Source: a virus (taxonomy: Duplodnaviria > Heunggongvirae > Uroviricota > Caudoviricetes). From it: a stretch of DNA of 10,263 nt. The notes below the pieces were generated by a model, which saw only the letters and a list, made by a program, of their open reading frames with translations, had not been told where the DNA came from and made no database searches. Position 1 is the first letter of the stretch, and each line of letters begins with the position of its first letter. Shown here piece by piece: positions 2,184 through 10,263 of this stretch. The DNA lies in IMG/VR virus record IMGVR_UViG_2713897055_000015, positions 1-10,263 of that record, one strand, 5' to 3'. The translations under genes were made by a program, and so were the position numbers.

Positions 2184-3239
2184 TTAACCAATTTTGACGG
2201 TAACAAATTTGCGAATGTCTGCCGGCACCGGCTGCGGTGCGCTGTGCGTCTGCACGTACTCAATCGCCGGATCGCCGTCCTCAATCCAGTTTTTCGGGTA
2301 GTACATGTTTTGCGTTGCGCCCGTTCTTACCGCTTCCTGATCCATAATCGCACCATAAGCAACCAGCCCTTTATTGTTGGTGTTGCCCAAGACCAGCAAA
2401 TCAGGCTCAAGGAAATGTTTTTCGGTGCCGTCGCTGTCGGCGTATTTGCCGGAATAGACGATAAGGGCAATATCGCCCAGATAGCCTTTAAAGCTCACCA
2501 CTTCGCCTAGGTTTTTACAGGCCAGTTCTGCGGCGGATTCTGAACCACGGGAAAGATCGTACAGTTCGCGGAATTTTTTAAAGCTGCGTAACGTGCGCCA
2601 TACCTCAGCGCCCATAATCATGACGTTTGCGGGGCAATTGCCCTGATCCGCATAAAGCTCGATATCATAGATTGGATCGTGGGTTTCTTTGTCCTGCTCG
2701 GACCATTTACGGCCTTTGGCCTGCTCTATGATGTTGTTTTCCGGCATCTTCCAGTCGATTTCATAGCGTTCTATGCCTTCGCCCTCAATGATGTTTTTTC
2801 CGGTCGTTACCGCATTTACCGCCAGCCATTCAACACGCGCTTTAATAGCGTTTACCTGGCGGCGCATGTTGCCAGTAATCAGGCGCATACGGCGATAGGT
2901 TGGGTCGTTAAGCTGTGCCGGATCTTCTCCAGCCATGCGCATGATGGTTTTTGTTGGATCGATTTCGTGCTTTGGCTTCATGTAGCCAGGTTTAATCGTG
3001 CTGGTTTCGTACCCTTTATCGCGCTGTACCTGGCTACCAACCATAGGCGAGCAAAACGCTGACATAGTGACTTCTTCGGTGTCCAGGTTATCCAGCATGA
3101 TGTTTTGGGTGTTGAATGTCGCTACTTTCGGGAAAAACAGCGTGGTAAACAGCGGACTAAATTTAAATTCCGCAATATCCCCGCGATTCAGGTACGCAAA
3201 AAGCTGGTTAGTGTTAAGTGCCGTTGCTTTGCCTGCCAT
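2184..3239 (-). CDS. Major capsid protein, lambda gpE family (351 aa)
   Basis: Extended blocks match lambda gpE as recalled: EFKFSPLF..LFF, PGYMKPKHEI, GEDPAQLNDPTYRRMRLI, VSFKGYLGDIALIVYSGKY, YPKNWIEDGDPA. Confidence 0.92.
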   Translation of the reverse strand: MAGKATALNTNQLFAYLNRGDIAEFKFSPLFTTLFFPKVATFNTQNIMLDNLDTEEVTMSAFCSPMVGSQVQRDKGYETSTIKPGYMKPKHEIDPTKTIMRMAGEDPAQLNDPTYRRMRLITGNMRRQVNAIKARVEWLAVNAVTTGKNIIEGEGIERYEIDWKMPENNIIEQAKGRKWSEQDKETHDPIYDIELYADQGNCPANVMIMGAEVWRTLRSFKKFRELYDLSRGSESAAELACKNLGEVVSFKGYLGDIALIVYSGKYADSDGTEKHFLEPDLLVLGNTNNKGLVAYGAIMDQEAVRTGATQNMYYPKNWIEDGDPAIEYVQTHSAPQPVPADIRKFVTVKIG

Positions 3240-3445
3240 TATTCACCCCCATAATTTTTATGCATCCCAAGCGCCGCAAGTAAATAAGAGCGCACAAGTG
3301 AACCTATCGACGGCTCCGGCGTCATCAGCGGATCCAGTCCAGCCGCTACGCCAGCCTCATAGTTTTTTTTGTGGCGCTGCTTGAGCACCTCCACGATTTC
3401 GGGGCTTATGTACACCGAAACACCGCCTTTTTTCTCTTCTGCCAT
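3239..3445 (-). CDS. Hypothetical small protein (68 aa), first gene of the capsid operon, translationally coupled to the capsid gene (TAATG overlap)
   Basis: SD AGAGGA ~11 nt upstream of the ATG at 3443-3445; stop overlaps the capsid gene start by 1 nt. Confidence 0.6.
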   Translation of the reverse strand: MAEEKKGGVSVYISPEIVEVLKQRHKKNYEAGVAAGLDPLMTPEPSIGSLVRSYLLAALGMHKNYGGE

Positions 3446-4452: not shown

Positions 4453-4675
4453 CTCTACCCATCTACCCGAATGCTCATCATGTCAGTAATGGCGCGGCTT
4501 TCAGCGGGTAGATAGCTTTTTGGGCTCCTCTACCTGCCGTCTACCCTGCTACCTGAAACTGATAAAATCAGGTAGAAGAGGTAGAGAGCTTTTATTAGCC
4601 TTCTACCTAGCCCTCTACCCACTTATCATGTTGAATAATATGCGTTTATTTCATTCAGGTAGATGGGGTAGAGGG
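4453..4675. repeat. Iteron array (about 12 copies of a TCTACC-core octamer in both orientations) with AT-rich stretches; putative origin of replication
   Basis: CTCTACCC 4453-4460, ATCTACCC 4461-4468, GGGTAGATA 4506-4514, CTCTACCT 4528-4535, TCTACCCT 4540-4547, CAGGTAGAAG 4569-4578, GGTAGAGA 4580-4587, TTCTACCT 4601-4608, CTCTACCC 4613-4620, GGTAGAT 4658-4664, GGGTAGAGGG 4666-4675. Lies immediately 3' of, and overlapping, the primase gene end. Confidence 0.7.
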
Positions 4676-6438
4676 CTTTTACAAAAAATTATAAAAAACG
4701 CGTCGCAATCGTCTGTTGTAATTGCGTTGGTCTGCGTTACTCCCTTAACTTTTCGCGTAATATATTCATGCCCGTAAACTTTCGCCGCTGGCTTCATGGC
4801 CTTGCTGAACTCAGCCACGTTTAGCGGTTTGCTCCTGCCTGCGTATGCCATAAACGCCAGATAGACGCGGTAAAGGCTGTTCCTGGTCGTGTACTTCACT
4901 GAATCGCCACCGCCGCCCATCATCAGGCCGCGTGCTTCCTCCAGAAAATTCAGGAACTGGCAAAACTCAATAACCGGATCCGTCTGTTGCTTTATTGCCA
5001 GAGCTTCATCACCGTCACGCTGTTCCAGTAGTAAAGCCCGTGCCTTCTCAGGGTCGGTAAAGTTCGCCAGCAATCGGCGGATAATGACAGGGATTTCAGC
5101 CGCAATCTTTTCCGGTAGCTCCCTGTCTTTTTCGGCCTCACTGACGATATTGTCGAAACGGAAAATTACGCGACGACGTGACACACCTCCGGCCCGTTCG
5201 GTGAATATCATCGGGTTATTGTTGGTAGCCAGCACCACCGCCCTGATTACCGCCGTAAAACGCTTCTCATATTTCGGGTTAATTTCCACGGGGTCGCCGC
5301 CCGTGATTTTCTTGATGCCCGTTCCTTCGCCTGTATATTTCGGCTGGTCAGCCAGGACGATAAGACGACTCCCGACAACCTGCGCACGTCCACCAGCATC
5401 ATCAAGCGATGTCATTTCAGCGCTTACCGTGTTCTGTTTCCCTGCCAGAAGGCTGGCTATGTGTGTGAATGTACTTTTACCGCTCCCGCCGTCTCCGGTG
5501 GCCTCAATAAACATCTGCCAGTCGTACCGGTTCGCCATAATCATGTACAGCGCGGCACATATACGCATCATCTTGCGCGGGTCTTTTCCGGCTGCGTGCT
5601 CAAGCCATTTATGAAAGTTTGGCGCGTTGTCGCGGATATTCTCCCCTGGTGCTGGTGGCGTGTACTCAATGCCGTTGTGCGTGGTGATCCAGTTCTCCGG
5701 CGTGTGCGGGGAAAATTCCCCCGTTTTCAGGTCAAGCGCACCATTGGCGAACGGCAGCAAATCGCCGGACGGCTCGCCCATTGGTTCGGCAATAACTTTT
5801 AACGCTTCCACGGCGTTATTGATTACGCGCTTGCTGAAAGTGGCCCTGTGCTCTGAATAGATCGCCACCATTTCGCGGCTAAGTTCCATTGTGCTGACCG
5901 GACACCATACCCCGCCGCGCCATACGTGAACGATTTCACTTTCCGGATGCACACAAACGCCATCAAATCGACCAGCAAGCATCTGTGCGCGCTCACTGTC
6001 TGCCATTTGTGCCAGTTGCGTATTTTTCTGCTCCGGCATGGTAAGCCCTGCGGCAATATTTTCACGCTCAGCATTCAGATAGCGCCGCCAGTTTTCACAC
6101 TTCTGGACGTGCATTCCTTCGTGGTAAAAATTTGCGTCCTGAATATCTGCCGCCGCCAGCTTCTGACCAATCTTTTTGGTCTCCACTAAATCCAGTTCTC
6201 CGGCCTGGTACAGCCTTACGCGCTTTTTCCCATCCGGAACAATTTTCAGCGCATCAAGTTCGGCAAGCTGCTTTGGCCCAAGCCACACAGGCGGCACATT
6301 ATCGCCGGATGCGGGGCCATCCTGCTCCTGCCATTGTTTCGCGTGCGACCAGGCATCACTACCCGCAAAGATAATTACCTCTGTGTCTTTGTGTTTTATT
6401 CCGCGTGGCTGTTTTTTTACGTTCGGTGCCAGTTTCAT
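4651..6438 (-). CDS. Primase-helicase of the P4 alpha / D5 family (595 aa) with a P-loop NTPase domain
   Basis: Walker A motif GDGGSGKST within a region typical of phage/plasmid primase P4-family C-terminal domains; position (upstream of iterons, downstream of immunity-type genes) matches satellite replication genes. The final ~17 codons are encoded by iteron sequence. Confidence 0.88.
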   Translation of the reverse strand: MKLAPNVKKQPRGIKHKDTEVIIFAGSDAWSHAKQWQEQDGPASGDNVPPVWLGPKQLAELDALKIVPDGKKRVRLYQAGELDLVETKKIGQKLAAADIQDANFYHEGMHVQKCENWRRYLNAERENIAAGLTMPEQKNTQLAQMADSERAQMLAGRFDGVCVHPESEIVHVWRGGVWCPVSTMELSREMVAIYSEHRATFSKRVINNAVEALKVIAEPMGEPSGDLLPFANGALDLKTGEFSPHTPENWITTHNGIEYTPPAPGENIRDNAPNFHKWLEHAAGKDPRKMMRICAALYMIMANRYDWQMFIEATGDGGSGKSTFTHIASLLAGKQNTVSAEMTSLDDAGGRAQVVGSRLIVLADQPKYTGEGTGIKKITGGDPVEINPKYEKRFTAVIRAVVLATNNNPMIFTERAGGVSRRRVIFRFDNIVSEAEKDRELPEKIAAEIPVIIRRLLANFTDPEKARALLLEQRDGDEALAIKQQTDPVIEFCQFLNFLEEARGLMMGGGGDSVKYTTRNSLYRVYLAFMAYAGRSKPLNVAEFSKAMKPAAKVYGHEYITRKVKGVTQTNAITTDDCDAFFIIFCKSPLPHLPE

Positions 6439-6734
6439 TTTTTACCCCTGAATACGTTAAGCATCTTTTTTATTTCCTGAATATTGGCGCGTGCTTTCTC
6501 CCTGCTGGTTGGTTTACTGCGGGGCGCTGCCTGTACCAGAGAAAAATCACGATCGAACTGATAAACAGGCATAACGCAGTCATATTCGTAGCCTTCACGG
6601 CGGTAAGTTACGCGCCGTTCCTCCACGCCTTTAATCGTTACCGTGCCGCCGTACTGGTCGCGGTAAATATCCCCGCGCATGAATTTAGTGCGAGTTTTGC
6701 CACTGGCAGTTAAGCCAGAATATTTAAGTTTCAT
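6435..6734 (-). CDS. Small protein (99 aa), possibly DUF4222-like, translationally coupled to the primase gene (ATGA overlap)
   Basis: Motif RRVTYRREGYEYDCV recalls DUF4222-type proteins from P4-like elements (from memory, unverified); SD GGAG upstream. Confidence 0.55.
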   Translation of the reverse strand: MKLKYSGLTASGKTRTKFMRGDIYRDQYGGTVTIKGVEERRVTYRREGYEYDCVMPVYQFDRDFSLVQAAPRSKPTSREKARANIQEIKKMLNVFRGKK

Positions 6735-6739
6735 TATTT

Positions 6740-6967
6740 TTATTCTCCGGTGTGGGGCGCGTTATTATTTTCGTGAATTGCCATCGCCTTATCCAGTTCA
6801 TCAATTACAGGCGATAGTAATGTCTGAACGGCGGCAAGCATTAATGACGAAGATTCTTCTCCAGCTTCCGTTGCTTCAATTAATTTAATTAACAACGCAT
6901 TCATTTCACGCGCTTTAATTAATGCGTTTTCAGAATGAATAAGAACATCATAGGGTATTTTATTCAT
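6740..6967 (-). CDS. Hypothetical small protein (75 aa), overlapping the upstream Icd-like gene by 8 nt
   Basis: ORF with protein-like composition in operon context. Function unknown. Confidence 0.55.
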   Translation of the reverse strand: MNKIPYDVLIHSENALIKAREMNALLIKLIEATEAGEESSSLMLAAVQTLLSPVIDELDKAMAIHENNNAPHTGE

Positions 6968-7130
6968 GACTCACCCCCTGACGAATACGGGCGACAAAAA
7001 TCAGATGTGCGTGCGGCAGCTGGGCGCGTGCTTCGCGTTCAGTGGCAGCGGTAACGGTGTAAATATCAATGCTGCTGTGGTGGCACTGCATAAAGCGCCA
7101 GACAAAGTAAGGGCGTGCGGATACAGCCAT
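6960..7130 (-). CDS. Icd-like small protein, copy 2 (56 aa; MAVSARPYFVWRF...ARIRQGVSHE)
   Basis: Start chosen at the internal ATG (7128-7130), preceded by AGGAG at 8-nt spacing. The C-terminal 50 aa are paralogous to copy 1. The long N-terminal extension in the ORF track (168 aa) is not supported. Confidence 0.6.
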   Translation of the reverse strand: MAVSARPYFVWRFMQCHHSSIDIYTVTAATEREARAQLPHAHLIFVARIRQGVSHE

Positions 7131-7194
7131 GTGAAAGGCTCCTACAGTAATTTTAAGGAGTCTCGCTACTACGCTGCTAAACGGGGTGGCGAGA

Positions 7195-7256
7195 CGTAAC
7201 AGGGTTAGCAGACTGGCACTGTAGGAACCAGCGAGCGCAAAGGCTCCCCCGTTACG
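7195..7256 (-). ncRNA. Candidate CI/C4-like immunity RNA carrying a seqB-like element
   Basis: On the minus strand CGUAACGGG (from plus 7248-7256) can pair with CCCUGUUACG (from plus 7195-7204), closing a ~60-nt element that contains GGUUCCUACAGUGCCAGUCUGCUAACC. That inner sequence is complementary to an upstream stretch (7321-7360) and to the SD region of Icd-like copy 2 (7138-7150). Confidence 0.4.
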
Positions 7257-7416
7257 CCCCGCCATAATGCGGGTATGGGTAGGCTTACGGACACAAAAAA
7301 ACCGCATATCGGAATATAAGCGGCTGTCCGCTACAGTATTCAGGCTGCTAAACCCGGTCGCCATGTGGGCGACGGGGGAAGCATACAGCCCCGTTATAAT
7401 TTTTTGCAAGCGGTTT

Positions 7417-7614
7417 TTACGCATGATGTGACCCCTGACGAATACGGGCGGCGAATACAGCAACACAACCGGACGGGCAACGGCTACGCGCTTCGCGTTC
7501 CGTCCAGGCGGTTACGTGGATGATTTGATGGTCTGACGCGCCAAAGGCAATAAAACGCCACACAAAGGCGGTTTGTGTGTGCGCTAGTCGTGGGGTATGC
7601 TGTCTTACAGCCAT
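7417..7614 (-). CDS. Icd-like small protein, copy 1 (65 aa; MAVRQHTPRLAHTQTAFVWRF...ARIRQGSHHA)
   Basis: Start chosen at the ATG (7612-7614) preceded by AGGAG at 8-nt spacing, same start context as copy 2 (AGGAG-N8-ATGGCTGTA). The ORF-track extension to 7737 is unsupported. Confidence 0.55.
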   Translation of the reverse strand: MAVRQHTPRLAHTQTAFVWRFIAFGASDHQIIHVTAWTEREARSRCPSGCVAVFAARIRQGSHHA

Positions 7615-7689
7615 AATCGTTACTCCTGTTAACGGTTTGGTTAGACGCCCTGCATGTGTGCCACCACTGCGGGGCGTTGTCGTTTGGTG

Positions 7690-7799
7690 CATCGCACCAC
7701 TCATTTTTAACCTATCAGTAAGTGAATCGCACTTCAAGCCTTTCTCTGAAATTTTTTTTTGTGTATACTGAATCGCACCAACTTAGAGAGGATTCAGTA
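7690..7799. promoter_or_regulatory. Divergent promoter/operator region with repeated (TG)AATCGCAC motifs and a T9 tract
   Basis: ATCGCAC at 7692-7698, GTGAATCGCAC at 7722-7732, TGAATCGCACC at 7770-7780; TATACT -10-like hexamer at 7764-7769 preceded by TG, upstream of the RHH gene; the minus-strand immunity-type operon starts in the opposite direction. Confidence 0.5.
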
Positions 7800-7979
7800 A
7801 TGGCAACAGGTTCAACAAATAATAAGTCGCAACAGTTAAATGCCAGATTCCCGCATGATGTTGTTGCAGACTTAGAAAAAAATTTAGATGAAGGTGAAAG
7901 CAAGGCGCAATTTATAGTTACTGCCGTTAAAGGCGAGATCAAACGCCGCCAGCGCCGCAAGGCCAAAGAATCAGAATAA
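7800..7979 (+). CDS. Small ribbon-helix-helix-like DNA-binding protein (59 aa)
   Basis: Start at the ATG (7800-7802) with SD GAGAGGA. Sequence pattern QLNARFPHDVVADLEKNLDE..FIVTAVKGEI fits a beta-strand/helix/helix (CopG/Arc-like) layout; basic C-terminus. The upstream extension in the ORF track depends on a GTG and crosses the promoter. Confidence 0.6.
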   Translation: MATGSTNNKSQQLNARFPHDVVADLEKNLDEGESKAQFIVTAVKGEIKRRQRRKAKESE

Positions 7980-8036: not shown

Positions 8037-8264
8037 ATGACCAACAACACACTATTACCAATACAAGACACGCAAACCCAAGATGATGAAATCATCCGGC
8101 AAAGGCAGTCAGAAGCCTGCGCCAGAGTTGAGGAAGAACTAACCAGAACAAAAATACCACCACCAGCGCCGCGCTTAATGCCACCAGAAAAATTTGCCCT
8201 TGAAGATTTTGTCGAGAAATACCCACGGCGGTTAAAAGCCACTAAAAACCGACCGCCTGGCTGA
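8037..8264 (+). CDS. Hypothetical small protein (75 aa), acidic N-terminal half and Pro-rich segment
   Basis: ORF downstream of the RHH gene after a hairpin (GCGCCGT..ACGGCGC, 7991-8017); weak SD. Function unknown. Confidence 0.45.
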   Translation: MTNNTLLPIQDTQTQDDEIIRQRQSEACARVEEELTRTKIPPPAPRLMPPEKFALEDFVEKYPRRLKATKNRPPG

Positions 8265-8420
8265 TAGCCTTGTCCACCAGCTACGGCGGTGCTAAGATCG
8301 AAAGCTGCATAAGTCATGAAATAAACTCCTTAGCGGTGCATACGCGCCGCTTCTTTCTTCACGAACAACCGCGAACAACTACAAACAAAAACACGGACGG
8401 AATTTAAAGAATGAATATTC

Positions 8421-8615
8421 TTAATTGACGCGTTCGCGGTTTTTGACCCACGCCACAACCTCAGACTTAACCCAGCCAACCGAACGACCGCCAAGACTGA
8501 TACGGGAGGGAAAGCGGCCTTGTTTTTCCATCTCGTAACGAGTTGTGCGGCAAACGCCTGTTAGCTCTCTGCATTCTTTTTCGCGGATTACACGATCTTC
8601 ATTTATTTCGCGCAT
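8421..8615 (-). CDS. alpA: AlpA-family phage transcriptional regulator / excisionase-like protein (64 aa)
   Basis: Small HTH protein with the typical AlpA-family pattern (..LTGVCRTTRYEMEKQGRFP..I.LG.RSVGW...EV..W...) located next to a P4-type integrase. Confidence 0.85.
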   Translation of the reverse strand: MREINEDRVIREKECRELTGVCRTTRYEMEKQGRFPSRISLGGRSVGWVKSEVVAWVKNRERVN

Positions 8616-9024
8616 AAAAAGCCCTACATAAAATTACGTATAGAAATTTTTGTTTCGCTGTGGATATACGGAAAGAGATTACTTCTTAGCTTTTCTTACC
8701 TCTTAAATTGATGGCGTAACCTTGCCAAAAGCTATGCTCGACAAGGTTCGCAAGGGTTCGTTGTTGTTCATAAAATCGTTGCACACCAGGAAAGACAATT
8801 CAACATTAAAATTCCCTCTACAGTGAGGAATAATAAAAAAAACAAATTAAAACAGTCACATAAAAGCATGCACTTTGAAATAAAGGAAAATATTAAAACT
8901 CAAGTAGACAATCGCTGTTTTCAAATTTTTTCAATACTTGACACATATAAATCGTCGATATTTGCCGATATTCGACGATTTATTTTAGAGGGCCATTTTT
9001 CGCAAGAAAAACAGCCGTAATTTG

Positions 9025-10263
9025 TCAAGAATTTTGAGAGTAAATTCGCGGGGTCATAACAACGATTTTTTCATCATTGTTCTGGAGAAGCTCGAGACGC
9101 TCAACCCATAGATTAAGAGCGTCACGTTTTGCATCGAGATAACGGGAGTGATTATAGACTCGTTGCACTCCTGGCAACTGGTGCGCGGTTAGCTGCTCCA
9201 CTACATGAGGATCCACGCCTAAATCGTTCAGCATCGTTGTAAACGTGTGCCGGATGTCGTGCAACGTCCAGGGGGCTTGATTAATACGTCTGTGTGCCGT
9301 TCTTCCGTACTCTGATACGGATGATTGCCCTTTCAGTTCTCCGAGCAATAATCCCGTGTGCCTGTTCTGCTCCACCAGCTTCGTTACGAACGGCAAGATC
9401 GCTTCCGGTATTGGCCTGAATATTGCTACCTTCGTTTTGCTATGTTCTTTCGGCACGGTCCAGAGCATTTCTTTAAAATCCCATTCCTGGACCTCAGAGC
9501 GTCTTAGCTCAGTGGTACGACATCCGAAGACAATCAGGAGGCGAATCAGGGCGCTGTAGTACGGTGGGTAAATTTTTTCATCCAGGGCGCGGAGTAATTC
9601 CCCAAGCTCCTTGTTTGTTAGTACGCGCTCGCTTATTTCTGCTTTTTTCCCAACATCACCTACAACCATATCATCTAGAACGTTGGTAATTGCGTAGCGT
9701 CGTTTGCGGCAGTACTTAAGCGCCTGCTTGCATACCTGTAACAAAAATCCTGCTGATACCGGATTACGCTTAGCAAGCTGATCAAAACAGGTCAGCCAGT
9801 GGCGTAGCTCGCATTTTTCCAGCGGCATAGCACCAATATGGCTGATTATGTGTGTATTGATCCGGCTTTTCAGAGATTCGTAATCTGTGCGCTTTTCCTT
9901 CGCGTACGATTCAAGCCAGTAAGTGAGCGCTTCCTTAACCGTAACAGGTGATAACGCTTCCTGTACGGTGTGATTAAGCTCATGGCGTGGATTTTTACCC
10001 TCAGCAAGCCAGGCGCGACACTGCGACGCTTTTTCCCTGGCTGCTTTCAGGCTCAAATCTGGATAATTTCCCAGCCTCAGACGTTCAGGGGCTACCTTCC
10101 TGCCTGTTCCGGCCCTGTAAGTGAAATACCAGGTTAACAGGCCATTGGTTGAATGCCTTACGCTAAGGTTGCCACCATCATTAAAAAAGGTGTTTTTTGT
10201 GGTTGGTGATCCGCTTAATTTTCGTAAAAGAGTGTCGCTAAGTCTATGAATTGCCCTGCTCAT
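9025..10263 (-). CDS. int: Tyrosine site-specific integrase, P4-type (412 aa; start codon at the window edge, N-terminus possibly a few residues longer)
   Basis: N-terminal arm-binding-type region (LSD..L..L.....K....DGG.L.V.....G...W.F.Y) and C-terminal catalytic signature HDIRHT ... VYNHSRY, typical of P4/CP4-57-type integrases. Confidence 0.95.
   Translation of the reverse strand: MSRAIHRLSDTLLRKLSGSPTTKNTFFNDGGNLSVRHSTNGLLTWYFTYRAGTGRKVAPERLRLGNYPDLSLKAAREKASQCRAWLAEGKNPRHELNHTVQEALSPVTVKEALTYWLESYAKEKRTDYESLKSRINTHIISHIGAMPLEKCELRHWLTCFDQLAKRNPVSAGFLLQVCKQALKYCRKRRYAITNVLDDMVVGDVGKKAEISERVLTNKELGELLRALDEKIYPPYYSALIRLLIVFGCRTTELRRSEVQEWDFKEMLWTVPKEHSKTKVAIFRPIPEAILPFVTKLVEQNRHTGLLLGELKGQSSVSEYGRTAHRRINQAPWTLHDIRHTFTTMLNDLGVDPHVVEQLTAHQLPGVQRVYNHSRYLDAKRDALNLWVERLELLQNNDEKIVVMTPRIYSQNS

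Follow-up and report, generated by a model that had tools for sequence, protein, structure and literature searches.

Why does a small phage satellite carry two Icd-like genes, one on each side of a C4 antisense RNA, and which of the two is under the control of this RNA? The window, i.e., the whole stretch of DNA that was analysed (10,263 nt), is a PICI-type phage satellite of E. coli that carries capsid genes. The minus strand of 6960-7780 is an early or immunity control region, built like the immI region of P1/P7 (c4-icd-ant) and the RNA immunity module of P4, which has the promoters PLL and PLE and in which seqA-CI-seqC is placed within the nested eta/kil genes. Its neighbours are the following.

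2184-3239: 351-aa ORF (ORF list)
4651-6438, minus strand: primase (PHROG DNA primase)
6435-6734, minus strand: DUF4222 gene (Pfam)
6740-6967, minus strand: 75-aa ORF, matched by PHROG 2196 (unknown function) only
7800-7979, plus strand: divergent small gene of the YlcI/YnfO family (NF041551, 63.3 bits)
8421-8615: AlpA (PF05930)
9025-10263: int (ORF list)

Integrase, AlpA, primase/replication and capsid genes of its own are found in one small island, and the order int - alpA - small regulatory genes - DUF4222 - primase - SSB - capsid genes is that of PICIs and capsid-forming PICIs (EcCIEDL933, EcCICFT073). The ends of the island lie outside the window. In the sister island L001, inserted within tqsA, the collinear ORFs are annotated as major capsid protein, head decoration protein and small terminase, and the annotation also agrees for the downstream genes (4651-6967). 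Most satellites are reported to encode an Icd-like protein (PMC13612085), and matches to C4 and isrK in Gram-negative PICIs have already been noted (PMC10111431).

The two Icd-like genes and their ribosome-binding sites are positioned as follows.

7627-7623, minus strand: Shine-Dalgarno AGGAG of copy 1, 8-nt spacer to the ATG at 7614
7614-7417, minus strand: icd-like copy 1 (proximal), P4-Kil/Icd family, 65 aa; ATG 7614-7612, stop 7419-7417
7143-7139, minus strand: Shine-Dalgarno AGGAG of copy 2, 8-nt spacer to the ATG at 7130
7130-6960, minus strand: icd-like copy 2 (distal), counterpart of kil in P4 and of icd in P1, 56 aa; ATG 7130-7128, stop 6962-6960

The tandem paralogy proposed in the initial annotation is confirmed: both copies begin with AGGAG-N8-ATGGCTGTA (MAV), both contain the FVWRF, VTA-TEREAR and ARIRQG blocks, and 25 of 48 residues are identical (BLASTP, E = 1e-12). 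The Icd-type family suspected there is recovered with the NCBIfam model NF033153 ("host cell division inhibitor Icd-like"; domain of 48 residues, curated cutoff of 25 bits), which gives 62.8 bits for copy 1 and 55.1 bits for copy 2. The same model is passed by the references P4 Kil (76.1 bits) and P7 Icd (52.7 bits). A Pfam search returns no family for copy 1, copy 2 or the long ORF that contains copy 2. Copy 1 has 107 database homologues, the named ones being almost all Icd-like, and in E. coli relatives PGAP calls an identical CDS of 198 nt. For the 56-aa copy 2, tblastn against phage genomes (E <= 0.01) finds nothing, such a query being too short; a DNA search and HMM membership were used instead. 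The AlphaFold2 model of copy 1 (pLDDT 73.2) is beta-beta-alpha-beta; its best match in the PDB by Foldseek has E = 1.8, and there are no sequence matches in the PDB. Inhibition of cell division may be assigned to either copy by analogy with P1 Icd (cited in PMC8201110) and P4 Kil (PMC10111431), the only members for which division inhibition (filamentation) or killing upon expression is known.

Both genes are under coding constraint, as had also been claimed. When the variable sites of 10 icd-C4-icd loci are sorted by codon position, copy 1 gives 10/10/19 and copy 2 gives 11/11/24, i.e., an excess at third positions, vs. 30/32/33 in the RNA region read in the frame of copy 2. The ratios of synonymous to nonsynonymous changes in the two icd ORFs are 220:262 and 254:311.

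The immunity RNA and its target sites occupy the interval between the two genes.

7386-7331, minus strand: a1/b1 upstream target element, equivalent of P4 seqA; a1 GGGTTTAGCAG at 7355-7345, b1 ACTGTAG at 7337-7331
7269-7182, minus strand: C4 antisense (immunity) RNA (RF01695, 71.5 bits); b' loop UUCCUACAGUG, a' linker CUGCUAACCC
7181-7139, minus strand: a2 and b2 target sites; a2 TTTAGCAG at 7181-7174, b2 ACTGTAGGAG at 7148-7139

The match to RF01695 is full length (model positions 1-87 of 87) with a gathering score of 45 bits, and the placement of one icd copy on each side of an immunity RNA thus holds. The stretch 7172-7361 has about 80% DNA identity to the c4 region of P1/P7. The a1/b1 region gives 45.5 bits with RF03163 (c4-a1b1), just short of the gathering score of 46.7, and 35.7 bits with isrK, also below the gathering score. 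The b2 site includes the Shine-Dalgarno of copy 2. The duplex of the b' loop with b2 (−22.4 kcal/mol) is the strongest in the whole operon in a scan restricted to the C4 loop and linker; the values for b1 and a1 are −18.1 and −19.0 kcal/mol, respectively. A scan with the whole RNA was discarded, since it is dominated by C4's own stems and is uninformative. Among 89 unique C4 loci the variable loop changes jointly with b1 and b2, and at least 15 specificities are found.

These results bear on which copy is gated. For the C4 loop of the window, the pairing energy is −22.4 kcal/mol with the start region of copy 2 and −7.3 kcal/mol with that of copy 1, the latter being non-cognate background. Across loci, the cognate loop gives −15.6 to −23.9 kcal/mol with the start region of copy 2 and −7.3 to −15.2 kcal/mol with that of copy 1, again the non-cognate background. 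Moreover, the start region of copy 1 shows no covariation with the loop, and an identical region is found with three different loops. Because the loop covaries with b1/b2, b2 covers the Shine-Dalgarno of copy 2 and the start of copy 1 does not follow the loop, it is predicted from the sequences that the distal copy is the only one here with an RNA target on its ribosome-binding site, and the only RNA-gated one, in agreement with the initial annotation. A differential dosage of a division inhibitor or anti-helper factor, also raised there, would be a hypothetical consequence.

The start context of copy 1 was also considered as a second C4 target, and rejected: there is no strong duplex and no covariation, and the context is not conserved. 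Among the nine sister loci fetched, copy 1 begins with MVAVNH... or MATIPT..., with another spacer; the start MAVRQHTP is present in some database proteins (P0001, P0078). AGGAG plus ATGG are the only features of the start context that are general across loci. The start of copy 2 (CAC-ATG-GCT-GTA) is kept in 10/10 loci. The identical start contexts of the two copies, to which the initial annotation drew attention, are not conserved in the sister loci and are therefore without regulatory meaning.

Copy 2 and the RNA region are moreover contained in a single reading frame, comparable to the eta frame of P4.

7424-6960, minus strand: eta-like long ORF of 154 codons, in frame with copy 2, spanning a candidate internal promoter, a1/b1, C4 and a2/b2
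7424-7417, minus strand: coupling junction ATGCGTAA, an overlap of the long-frame ATG with the copy 1 stop codon
6967-6960, minus strand: coupling junction ATGAATAA, an overlap of the copy 2 stop codon with the ATG of the ORF that follows

PGAP annotates this frame as a 465-nt CDS in E. coli relatives, and automatic annotation leaves the C4 RNA without annotation and names the nested long frame a 154-aa "Icd-like protein". Together with PHROG 29966, a profile of 188 residues with the Icd part at its C-terminus, this could mean that the distal gene is a single 154-aa protein, that there is no RNA gene, and that the paralogy is only that of a domain of a longer protein. Against this stand the full-length match of the C4 covariance model, the DNA identity of about 80% to the c4 gene of P7 (annotated as misc_RNA), the extensive loop/target covariation, the Shine-Dalgarno and ATG of the short form kept in every locus, and the upstream 98 codons without protein-level constraint. 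The single-protein reading is thus extremely improbable. A longer ORF had been named beforehand as an observation that would refute the paralogy; it exists, with copy 2 nested in frame within it, and the paralogy stands. It must be noted that Pfam "Ash" matches the translated RNA region of sister islands.

Is the long frame translated at all? Its RNA part has a ratio of synonymous to nonsynonymous changes of 125:992, i.e., it is without amino-acid constraint. This ratio, the absence of codon periodicity (30/32/33) and the N-terminal 98 residues without any protein family match are what is expected if the two icd genes are independent, the upstream one free and the downstream one C4-gated, with a long frame that is meaningless and a copy 1 that has no role in overriding the lock. 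The same C4-icd gate is also found with a closed frame in P1-like phages and in some satellite lineages (first-gene types MARSAH, MAKSTC and MAKSIC), so translation through the RNA is not universally required. On the contrary, the long frame has no in-frame stop in these 98 codons, whereas the other frames have 7 and 6 (P = 0.004, shuffles). It is open over 120-127 codons in 17 satellite loci, belonging to two or three lineages with differing sequence upstream of a1, and its ATG always overlaps the stop of the upstream ORF. The ATGNNTAA overlap is kept in 10/10 icd-C4-icd loci despite differing last codons of copy 1; as these 10 loci are close relatives whose RNA region has no indels, the open frame could be inherited rather than selected. 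Finally, P4 has the same nested arrangement, with a published function. We consider the reading with a meaningless long frame unlikely, though a serious competitor; the long frame probably has a function by being translated.

P4 is the precedent on this point. In both elements an RNA of the C4/CI family and an upstream element of the isrK/a1b1 type lie inside a long ORF that ends in an Icd/Kil-family gene (56-65 aa) with its own Shine-Dalgarno, and replication genes (primase) are located downstream. P4 eta (214 codons, 8168-8812) includes C4/CI, and its 3' end is the 65-aa Kil. As in the window, the long ORF of P4 begins at an ATG overlapping the stop of the upstream gene (ORF88/eta, ATGA overlap), and the kil/epsilon overlap of 8 nt, GTGCGTAA, has the same geometry as the junction between copy 1 and the long frame and as that between copy 2 and the ORF after it. 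Translation of the long frame of P4 eta/kil makes induced transcripts RNA-insensitive (PMC10111431); by analogy, the same effect may be inferred for the window. At the level of sequence geometry the junction is like that of P4, and ribosomes may re-initiate at ATG 7424. The differences are: (i) the upstream gene coupled to the long frame is ORF88, the alpA homologue, in P4, and a second Icd/Kil paralogue here; (ii) alpA adjoins the long frame in P4, whereas here it lies 800 nt upstream of copy 1, with two genes of the opposite (plus) strand in between; (iii) the isrK match is above threshold in P4 and below it in the window; (iv) a' of the window's C4 is of P1/P7 type; (v) the window's element carries capsid genes.

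Two candidate promoters and a set of repeats suggest how transcription across this region may be organized.

7409-7380, minus strand: candidate internal constitutive promoter, TTGCAA (7409-7404), 18 nt, TATGCT (7385-7380)
7687-7697, 7722-7732 and 7768-7778, divergent promoter region: three operator-like repeats GTGCGAT(T/G)CA(C/G)
7737-7709, minus strand: candidate regulated promoter of copy 1, TTGAAG (7737-7732), 17 nt, TAGGTT (7714-7709)

Both putative promoters are weak consensus matches, and neither was flagged by a promoter consensus scan. The layout of the regulated one, TTGA(A/C)G-N17-TAnnnT, recurs in 4/5 other single-C4 sister loci (L001, L017, L051 and L097). The internal one, which matches only 8/12 of the consensus and lies downstream of the eta-like ATG 7424, aligns with a P7 candidate (TTGACC-N17-TATAGT) and is conserved in sister loci. 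The operator-like repeat has 3 matches vs. 0.34 expected by chance, and at corresponding places the sister loci have a repeated GTG-N5-CA motif of their own. The product of the divergent YlcI/YnfO-family gene has a weak match to an Arc-like repressor PHROG and is a candidate for the cognate repressor of these repeats.

The whole is probably best explained by an RNA lock of the P1/P4 type with an eta-like bypass and an extra, ungated icd copy upstream; the dynamic steps are proposed by analogy. The weak internal promoter (7409-7380) would constitutively yield a transcript from which C4 is processed, as a stable RNA of about 77 nt if it behaves like other members of its family. C4 would pair with a2/b2 (and a1/b1) and block translation of the distal copy; the untranslated RNA would be terminated ahead of the replication genes, leaving the island quiescent. 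Upon induction, the operator-controlled promoter (7737-7709) upstream of the proximal copy would fire. Ribosomes would translate the proximal copy, stop at TAA 7419-7417, re-initiate at ATG 7424 and then traverse a1/b1, C4 and a2/b2 in the eta-like frame. With this frame translated across the RNA and its targets, the induced transcript would therefore ignore the lock and read into the 75-aa ORF, DUF4222 and the primase, which are presumably under the control of the gate. In an arrangement of P4 type, translation of the long ORF would act by preventing Rho-dependent termination. The proximal copy would have two roles, as an Icd/Kil-type protein produced upon induction only and as a ribosome-delivery ORF; in P4 the latter role falls to the alpA homologue.

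The sister loci give indications on the origin of the proximal copy. Two complete C4-icd modules are present in 4/9 of them (L002, L015, L034 and L076), which keep an upstream module isrK/a1b1-C4A-icd; isrK is above threshold in sister loci. In these islands the two C4 locks have different a' and b' and are serially linked by the same coupling junctions. Since 4/9 sister loci carry two complete modules, the upstream RNA has probably been lost from the window, and a second C4-icd module, located upstream, is the probable ancestor of copy 1. No degenerate second C4 was found upstream of copy 1 in the window down to E = 10. Chimeric database proteins, with the N-terminal part of copy 1 and the C-terminal part of copy 2, indicate that the pair recombines. 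These three observations, i.e., the modules retained elsewhere, the absence of a C4-like RNA upstream of copy 1 and the recombination, would also suit a copy 1 that is only the decaying remnant of the lost module, functionless now and a pseudogene in the making. However, copy 1 is intact, with Shine-Dalgarno and ATG, in 6/6 single-C4 loci; its variable sites have the third-position excess given above, its family-model score is above that of copy 2, it retains the overlapping ATG junction, and the promoter/operator layout before it is conserved in most single-C4 loci. Decay of copy 1 is thus quite improbable.

More may be asked of copy 1 than the favoured explanation (a lock with a bypass and an ungated extra copy) attributes to it. 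The proximal paralogue might be a dedicated "key", delivering ribosomes to the eta-like frame so that only repressor-controlled upstream transcripts escape C4, and two serial locks might form a two-factor RNA immunity cascade; we regard this as a tentative idea, less likely right than wrong. The two paralogous proteins could also interact, e.g., copy 1 modulating the toxicity of copy 2.

The icd-C4-icd form is found in only 68/5426 complete E. coli genomes (coverage >= 80%). Genome contigs (596 Gb) were also searched with a 16-mer, which is not specific enough for such a volume; about 42 of the 99 matches, those with a TTAGCAG target motif close by, were retained as likely C4 loci. They contain no additional icd-C4-icd locus, and an Icd-like first ORF is seen in only three of them (two P1-type and one MARSAH-type). 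On the O157:H7-type island L222, unlike in the window, a copy-1-type gene is present with no Rfam C4 match.

The lock itself resembles the immI region of P1/P7. The DNA identity of about 80% extends over a1/b1-c4-a2; a', a1 and a2 are identical, and b', b1 and b2 differ compensatorily, as they do between P1 and P7. In these phages b2 also lies on the icd Shine-Dalgarno, and in P7 the stop of icd overlaps the start of ant1. Two tiers of control would be common to both systems, i.e., an upstream protein-controlled operator (Op(c4) of P7, bound by C1) and the RNA. On the other hand, c4 of P1/P7 is not preceded by an Icd-like gene, and the icd frame of these phages does not stay open through the RNA region. 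Their icd is followed by the antirepressor Ant, whereas here a 75-aa ORF and then replication genes follow; no Ant or KilA match was found for the 75-aa ORF in Pfam and PHROG, so that the ant gene which is part of immI has no counterpart recognized by these searches. The isrK family, which matches the a1/b1 region of the window below threshold (35.7 bits), also links it to isrK-orf45-anrP of Salmonella Gifsy-1, which Hershko-Shalev and colleagues reportedly described in 2016 as activating antirepressor translation, not blocking it.

The system is largely ordinary, i.e., a known P1/P4 RNA lock preceded by an additional gene copy that is unlocked. All its components are precedented in P1/P7/P4, and C4/isrK and Icd-like genes in PICIs have been noted before, so the gain is incremental. 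The region is misread by automatic annotation. The locus shows how a capsid-forming PICI satellite probably silences its replication genes, by means of an RNA lock of the P1/P4 type with many interchangeable specificities, and it also points to a possible bypass of this lock by induced transcripts.

The interval 6960-7614 is filled exactly by two small minus-strand ORFs, in agreement with the pair of paralogous genes proposed in the initial annotation:

7614-7417 (-): copy 1 (proximal), 65 aa, AGGAG 8 nt ahead of the start ATGGCTGTA
7130-6960 (-): copy 2 (distal), 56 aa, AGGAG 8 nt ahead of the start ATGGCTGTA

The two proteins share 25 identical residues out of 48 (E = 1e-12), including the blocks already pointed out in that annotation. 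No Pfam model matches either copy; NCBIfam NF033153 («host cell division inhibitor Icd-like protein», cutoff 25) matches copy 1 with 62.8 bits and copy 2 with 55.1 bits. Both also match PHROGs 1743 and 6196, which carry the misleading label «transcriptional repressor». It must be noted that the reference record of phage P4 (L224) still has a 137-aa CDS, «cI gene product / transcriptional repressor», at 8168-8584(-), i.e., over the CI RNA and kil; this old annotation probably accounts for the label. The database search for copy 1 gave 107 homologues; those named by their source are all Icd-like except one («ash family protein») and come from E. coli or near relatives (Shigella, E. fergusonii). 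The AlphaFold2 model of copy 1 (43-sequence alignment, pLDDT 73) is beta-beta-alpha-beta; neither a fold comparison with the PDB (best E = 1.8) nor a sequence comparison gave a meaningful match.

Across ten icd-C4-icd loci (the window and nine sister loci), variable sites at the three codon positions number 10/10/19 in the copy 1 core and 11/11/24 in copy 2, and pairwise synonymous:non-synonymous codon differences amount to 220:262 and 254:311, respectively. The corresponding values for the RNA region, read in the frame of copy 2, are 30/32/33 and 125:992. Judged by these substitution patterns, both copies behave like genes, as the postulated coding constraint implied, and the RNA region is unlike protein-coding sequence. 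The FVWRF codons of copy 1 coincide with a terminator-like hairpin at 7559-7579(-) (8 bp, then GCGTTTTATT); the hairpin is not kept in the sister loci and is probably fortuitous.

The immunity RNA assumed between the two genes proved genuine:

7269-7182 (-): C4 antisense RNA, RF01695 full length, 71.5 bits (gathering score 45)

At the DNA level, 7361-7172 shares about 80% identity with the c4 region of P1, P7 and their relatives; the P7 annotation has a c4 misc_RNA here, with icd (73 aa) and ant1/2 after it. In a pairwise alignment, the a' linker CUGCUAACCC, a1 GGGUUUAGCAG (7355-7345) and a2 UUUAGCAG (7181-7174) are the same in the window and P7. The b' loop is not the same (UUCCUACAGUG vs. 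UUUCACAAUCG in P7), with compensating changes in b1 and b2 (ACUGUAG and ACUGUAGGAG vs. GAUUGUG and GAUUGUGAGG in P7). At the sequence level the RNA module is homologous to immI of P1/P7. The upstream element scores 45.5 bits with the Rfam c4-a1b1 model, just below the 46.7 threshold, and its isrK match is weak.

A scan of viral contigs with the a' 16-mer gave 89 unique loci; their b' loops are of at least 15 kinds, each matched by its own b1 and b2, and the end of b2 is always the GGAG/GAGG of the first gene downstream. This is strong comparative evidence for pairing between the RNA and the ribosome-binding site of the distal copy. The identical a' 16-mer and a matching a1 are also present in C4 modules far beyond Enterobacteriaceae (L124-L216, contigs of Acinetobacter, Pseudomonas, Paraburkholderia, Xenorhabdus and Neisseriaceae), where the first ORF past the RNA is not Icd-like according to a small 3-sequence HMM. 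Among those having an a2 site (Pseudomonas and some of the Acinetobacter and Neisseriaceae loci), b2 overlaps the SD of the first ORF in most; L167 contains two copies of the C4 module, 355 nt apart.

Over the whole operon, the strongest duplex predicted for the loop, −22.4 kcal/mol, falls on the copy 2 start region, that of copy 1 being unremarkable. In the ten loci, the cognate loop gives −15.6 to −23.9 kcal/mol with the copy 2 start region and −7.3 to −15.2 kcal/mol with that of copy 1, i.e., the level of non-cognate loops. Moreover, one and the same copy 1 start region (CTAGGAGCCGTT-ATGGTTGC) is found with three different loops. The copy 1 start region was therefore rejected as a C4 target, and the initial proposal of RNA control for the distal copy alone is supported for this element. 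The «identical start contexts» stressed in the same proposal have no regulatory meaning: ATGGCTGTA is absent from copy 1 of the nine sister loci, which opens with MVAVNH or MATIPT, although it recurs in some database proteins.

Copy 2 is also the end of a longer frame:

7424-6960 (-): eta-like frame, 154 codons, in frame with copy 2

This frame is stop-free for 127 codons upstream of copy 2 in 10/10 loci and open for 120-127 codons in two more satellite lineages with a different sequence upstream of a1; it is closed in P1-like phages and three other satellite lineages. The other two frames have 4-9 stops per 100 codons. In the window, the lack of stops in the 98 codons 7424-7131 is found in 0.4% of dinucleotide-preserving shuffles. 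The first ATG overlaps the copy 1 stop (ATGCGTAA, 7424-7417). The ATGNNTAA junction is kept in 10/10 loci, also in those with other final codons in copy 1, and in a lineage devoid of copy 1 the ATG of the long frame lies across the stop of a different upstream ORF in 3/6 loci examined. The copy 2 stop overlaps the ATG of the next ORF in its turn (ATGAATAA, 6967-6960). A histidine is near-constant two residues before the stop of Icd-like proteins (SHHA*, VSHE*, VCHA*, VAHV*; window 7417-7424 and 6960-6967, and sister loci); the overlap with the ATG of the next coupled ORF (C-ATG-NN-TAA) explains it, no protein requirement being needed.

The anatomy is the same, in sequence terms, as that of P4. 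There, isrK/a1b1 (8705-8615) and C4/CI (8507-8420) lie within a 214-codon ORF (eta, 8812-8168), the last 65 aa of which have an SD of their own and are Kil (NF033153, 76.1 bits); the start of eta, ATGATGATG, overlaps the stop of ORF88, the alpA homologue, and the Kil stop and the epsilon start share the same 8-nt overlap, GTGCGTAA. In P4, a constitutive promoter within eta gives a transcript which is terminated via CI/seqA interactions and processed into CI; Kil is Eta in truncated form; the full-length protein is made only from an upstream late promoter, its translation being coupled to the alpA homologue and preventing termination (PMC10111431). Pfam PF10554 («Ash protein family», PGAP «ash family protein») matches translated DNA which Rfam assigns to isrK plus C4 RNA (L002:4672-4920(-), L223:3545-3883(+)) and may largely describe a reading frame over an RNA gene, i.e., the eta-like frame.

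Upstream of the icd-C4-icd region the window contains:

9025-10263: integrase
8421-8615: AlpA
7800-7979: YlcI/YnfO-family gene, divergent from the icd-C4-icd region

Beyond that region come a 75-aa ORF, DUF4222, primase, SSB and capsid-type ORFs, the last being collinear with genes that the L001 annotation names head decoration and major capsid. Close relatives in E. coli chromosomes are inserted in tqsA and also have the small terminase. The island is a capsid-forming PICI-type satellite; C4 and isrK models match Gram-negative PICIs (PMC10111431). In the E. coli relatives PGAP calls copy 1 with the start initially chosen, and copy 2 as a 465-nt CDS straight across the un-annotated C4 RNA. Of 5426 complete E. 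coli genomes, 1569 have at least a part of the region and 68 the full icd-C4-icd stretch (at least 80% coverage). A 314-codon open frame, just past alpA and leading to a copy-1-type Icd gene, occurs in L222 (2798-3742(+), an E. coli O157:H7 island adjoining roxA), without C4 or isrK match in Rfam; an un-annotated RHH-like 57-aa ORF lies on its opposite strand (3241-3414).

Rfam scans revealed two C4 RNAs in four loci, in the order isrK/a1b1-C4A-copy 1-a1/b1-C4B-copy 2. The tandem C4-icd modules are:

L002, 4218-4884
L015, 2958-3621
L034, 7631-8294
L076, 2642-3308

C4A and C4B have different a' and b', each matched by its own targets, the SD of copy 1 among them. Copy 1 also ends an open frame there (205-299 codons), and in L002 its start region hardly differs from that of P4 kil. 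The arrangement amounts to two RNA locks in series in these sister islands, with the same ATGNNTAA coupling junction linking them. C4B is the only C4 RNA of the window and five other loci, the C4A segment being replaced in most single-C4 loci by an operator/promoter region and a divergent YlcI/YnfO-like gene. From this distribution, the most likely origin of the pair is that two complete modules were joined in tandem and the upstream RNA was lost afterwards. Three chimeric Icd-like proteins (P0081, P0083, P0091) have the N-terminal two-thirds of copy-1 type and the C-terminus of copy-2 type (...EREARAQLPHAHLIFVARIRQG); they are the expected product of recombination between the paralogues, an event which would delete the C4 RNA.

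Candidate control elements are:

7737-7732 (-): TTGAAG, 17 nt, TAGGTT 7714-7709, candidate promoter upstream of copy 1
7409-7404 (-): TTGCAA, 18 nt, TATGCT 7385-7380, candidate weak internal promoter downstream of ATG 7424
7687-7697, 7722-7732, 7768-7778: operator-like repeats GTGCGAT(T/G)CA(C/G), in the divergent promoter region that separates copy 1 from the YlcI/YnfO-like gene

The internal candidate aligns with a candidate P7 promoter, TTGACC-N17-TATAGT. The upstream layout recurs in 4/5 other single-C4 sister loci, and the candidate is embedded among the repeats (3 matches vs. 0.34 expected). At aligned positions four other islands (L001, L017, L051, L097) each have their own repeated GTG-N5-CA motif, which suggests a cognate repressor family with switched specificities; the RHH-like YlcI/YnfO protein is possibly that repressor.

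The internal promoter would give the C4 precursor, and C4 would block copy 2 and, via polarity, the replication genes. Transcripts from the upstream promoter would include copy 1, and ribosomes having finished copy 1 would start again at ATG 7424 and read through a1/b1, C4 and a2/b2, so that the RNA lock would be overridden; the copy 2 stop/ATG overlap (6967-6960) would prolong this coupling chain.

All the parts have precedents, Icd-like genes (PMC13612085) and C4/isrK RNAs (PMC10111431) in satellites being already published, and the novelty is limited to a modest architectural twist. The region is a P1/P4-type RNA immunity module within a PICI-type satellite, in which the extra, ungated Icd/Kil paralogue is probably the coupling partner for the eta-like bypass frame.
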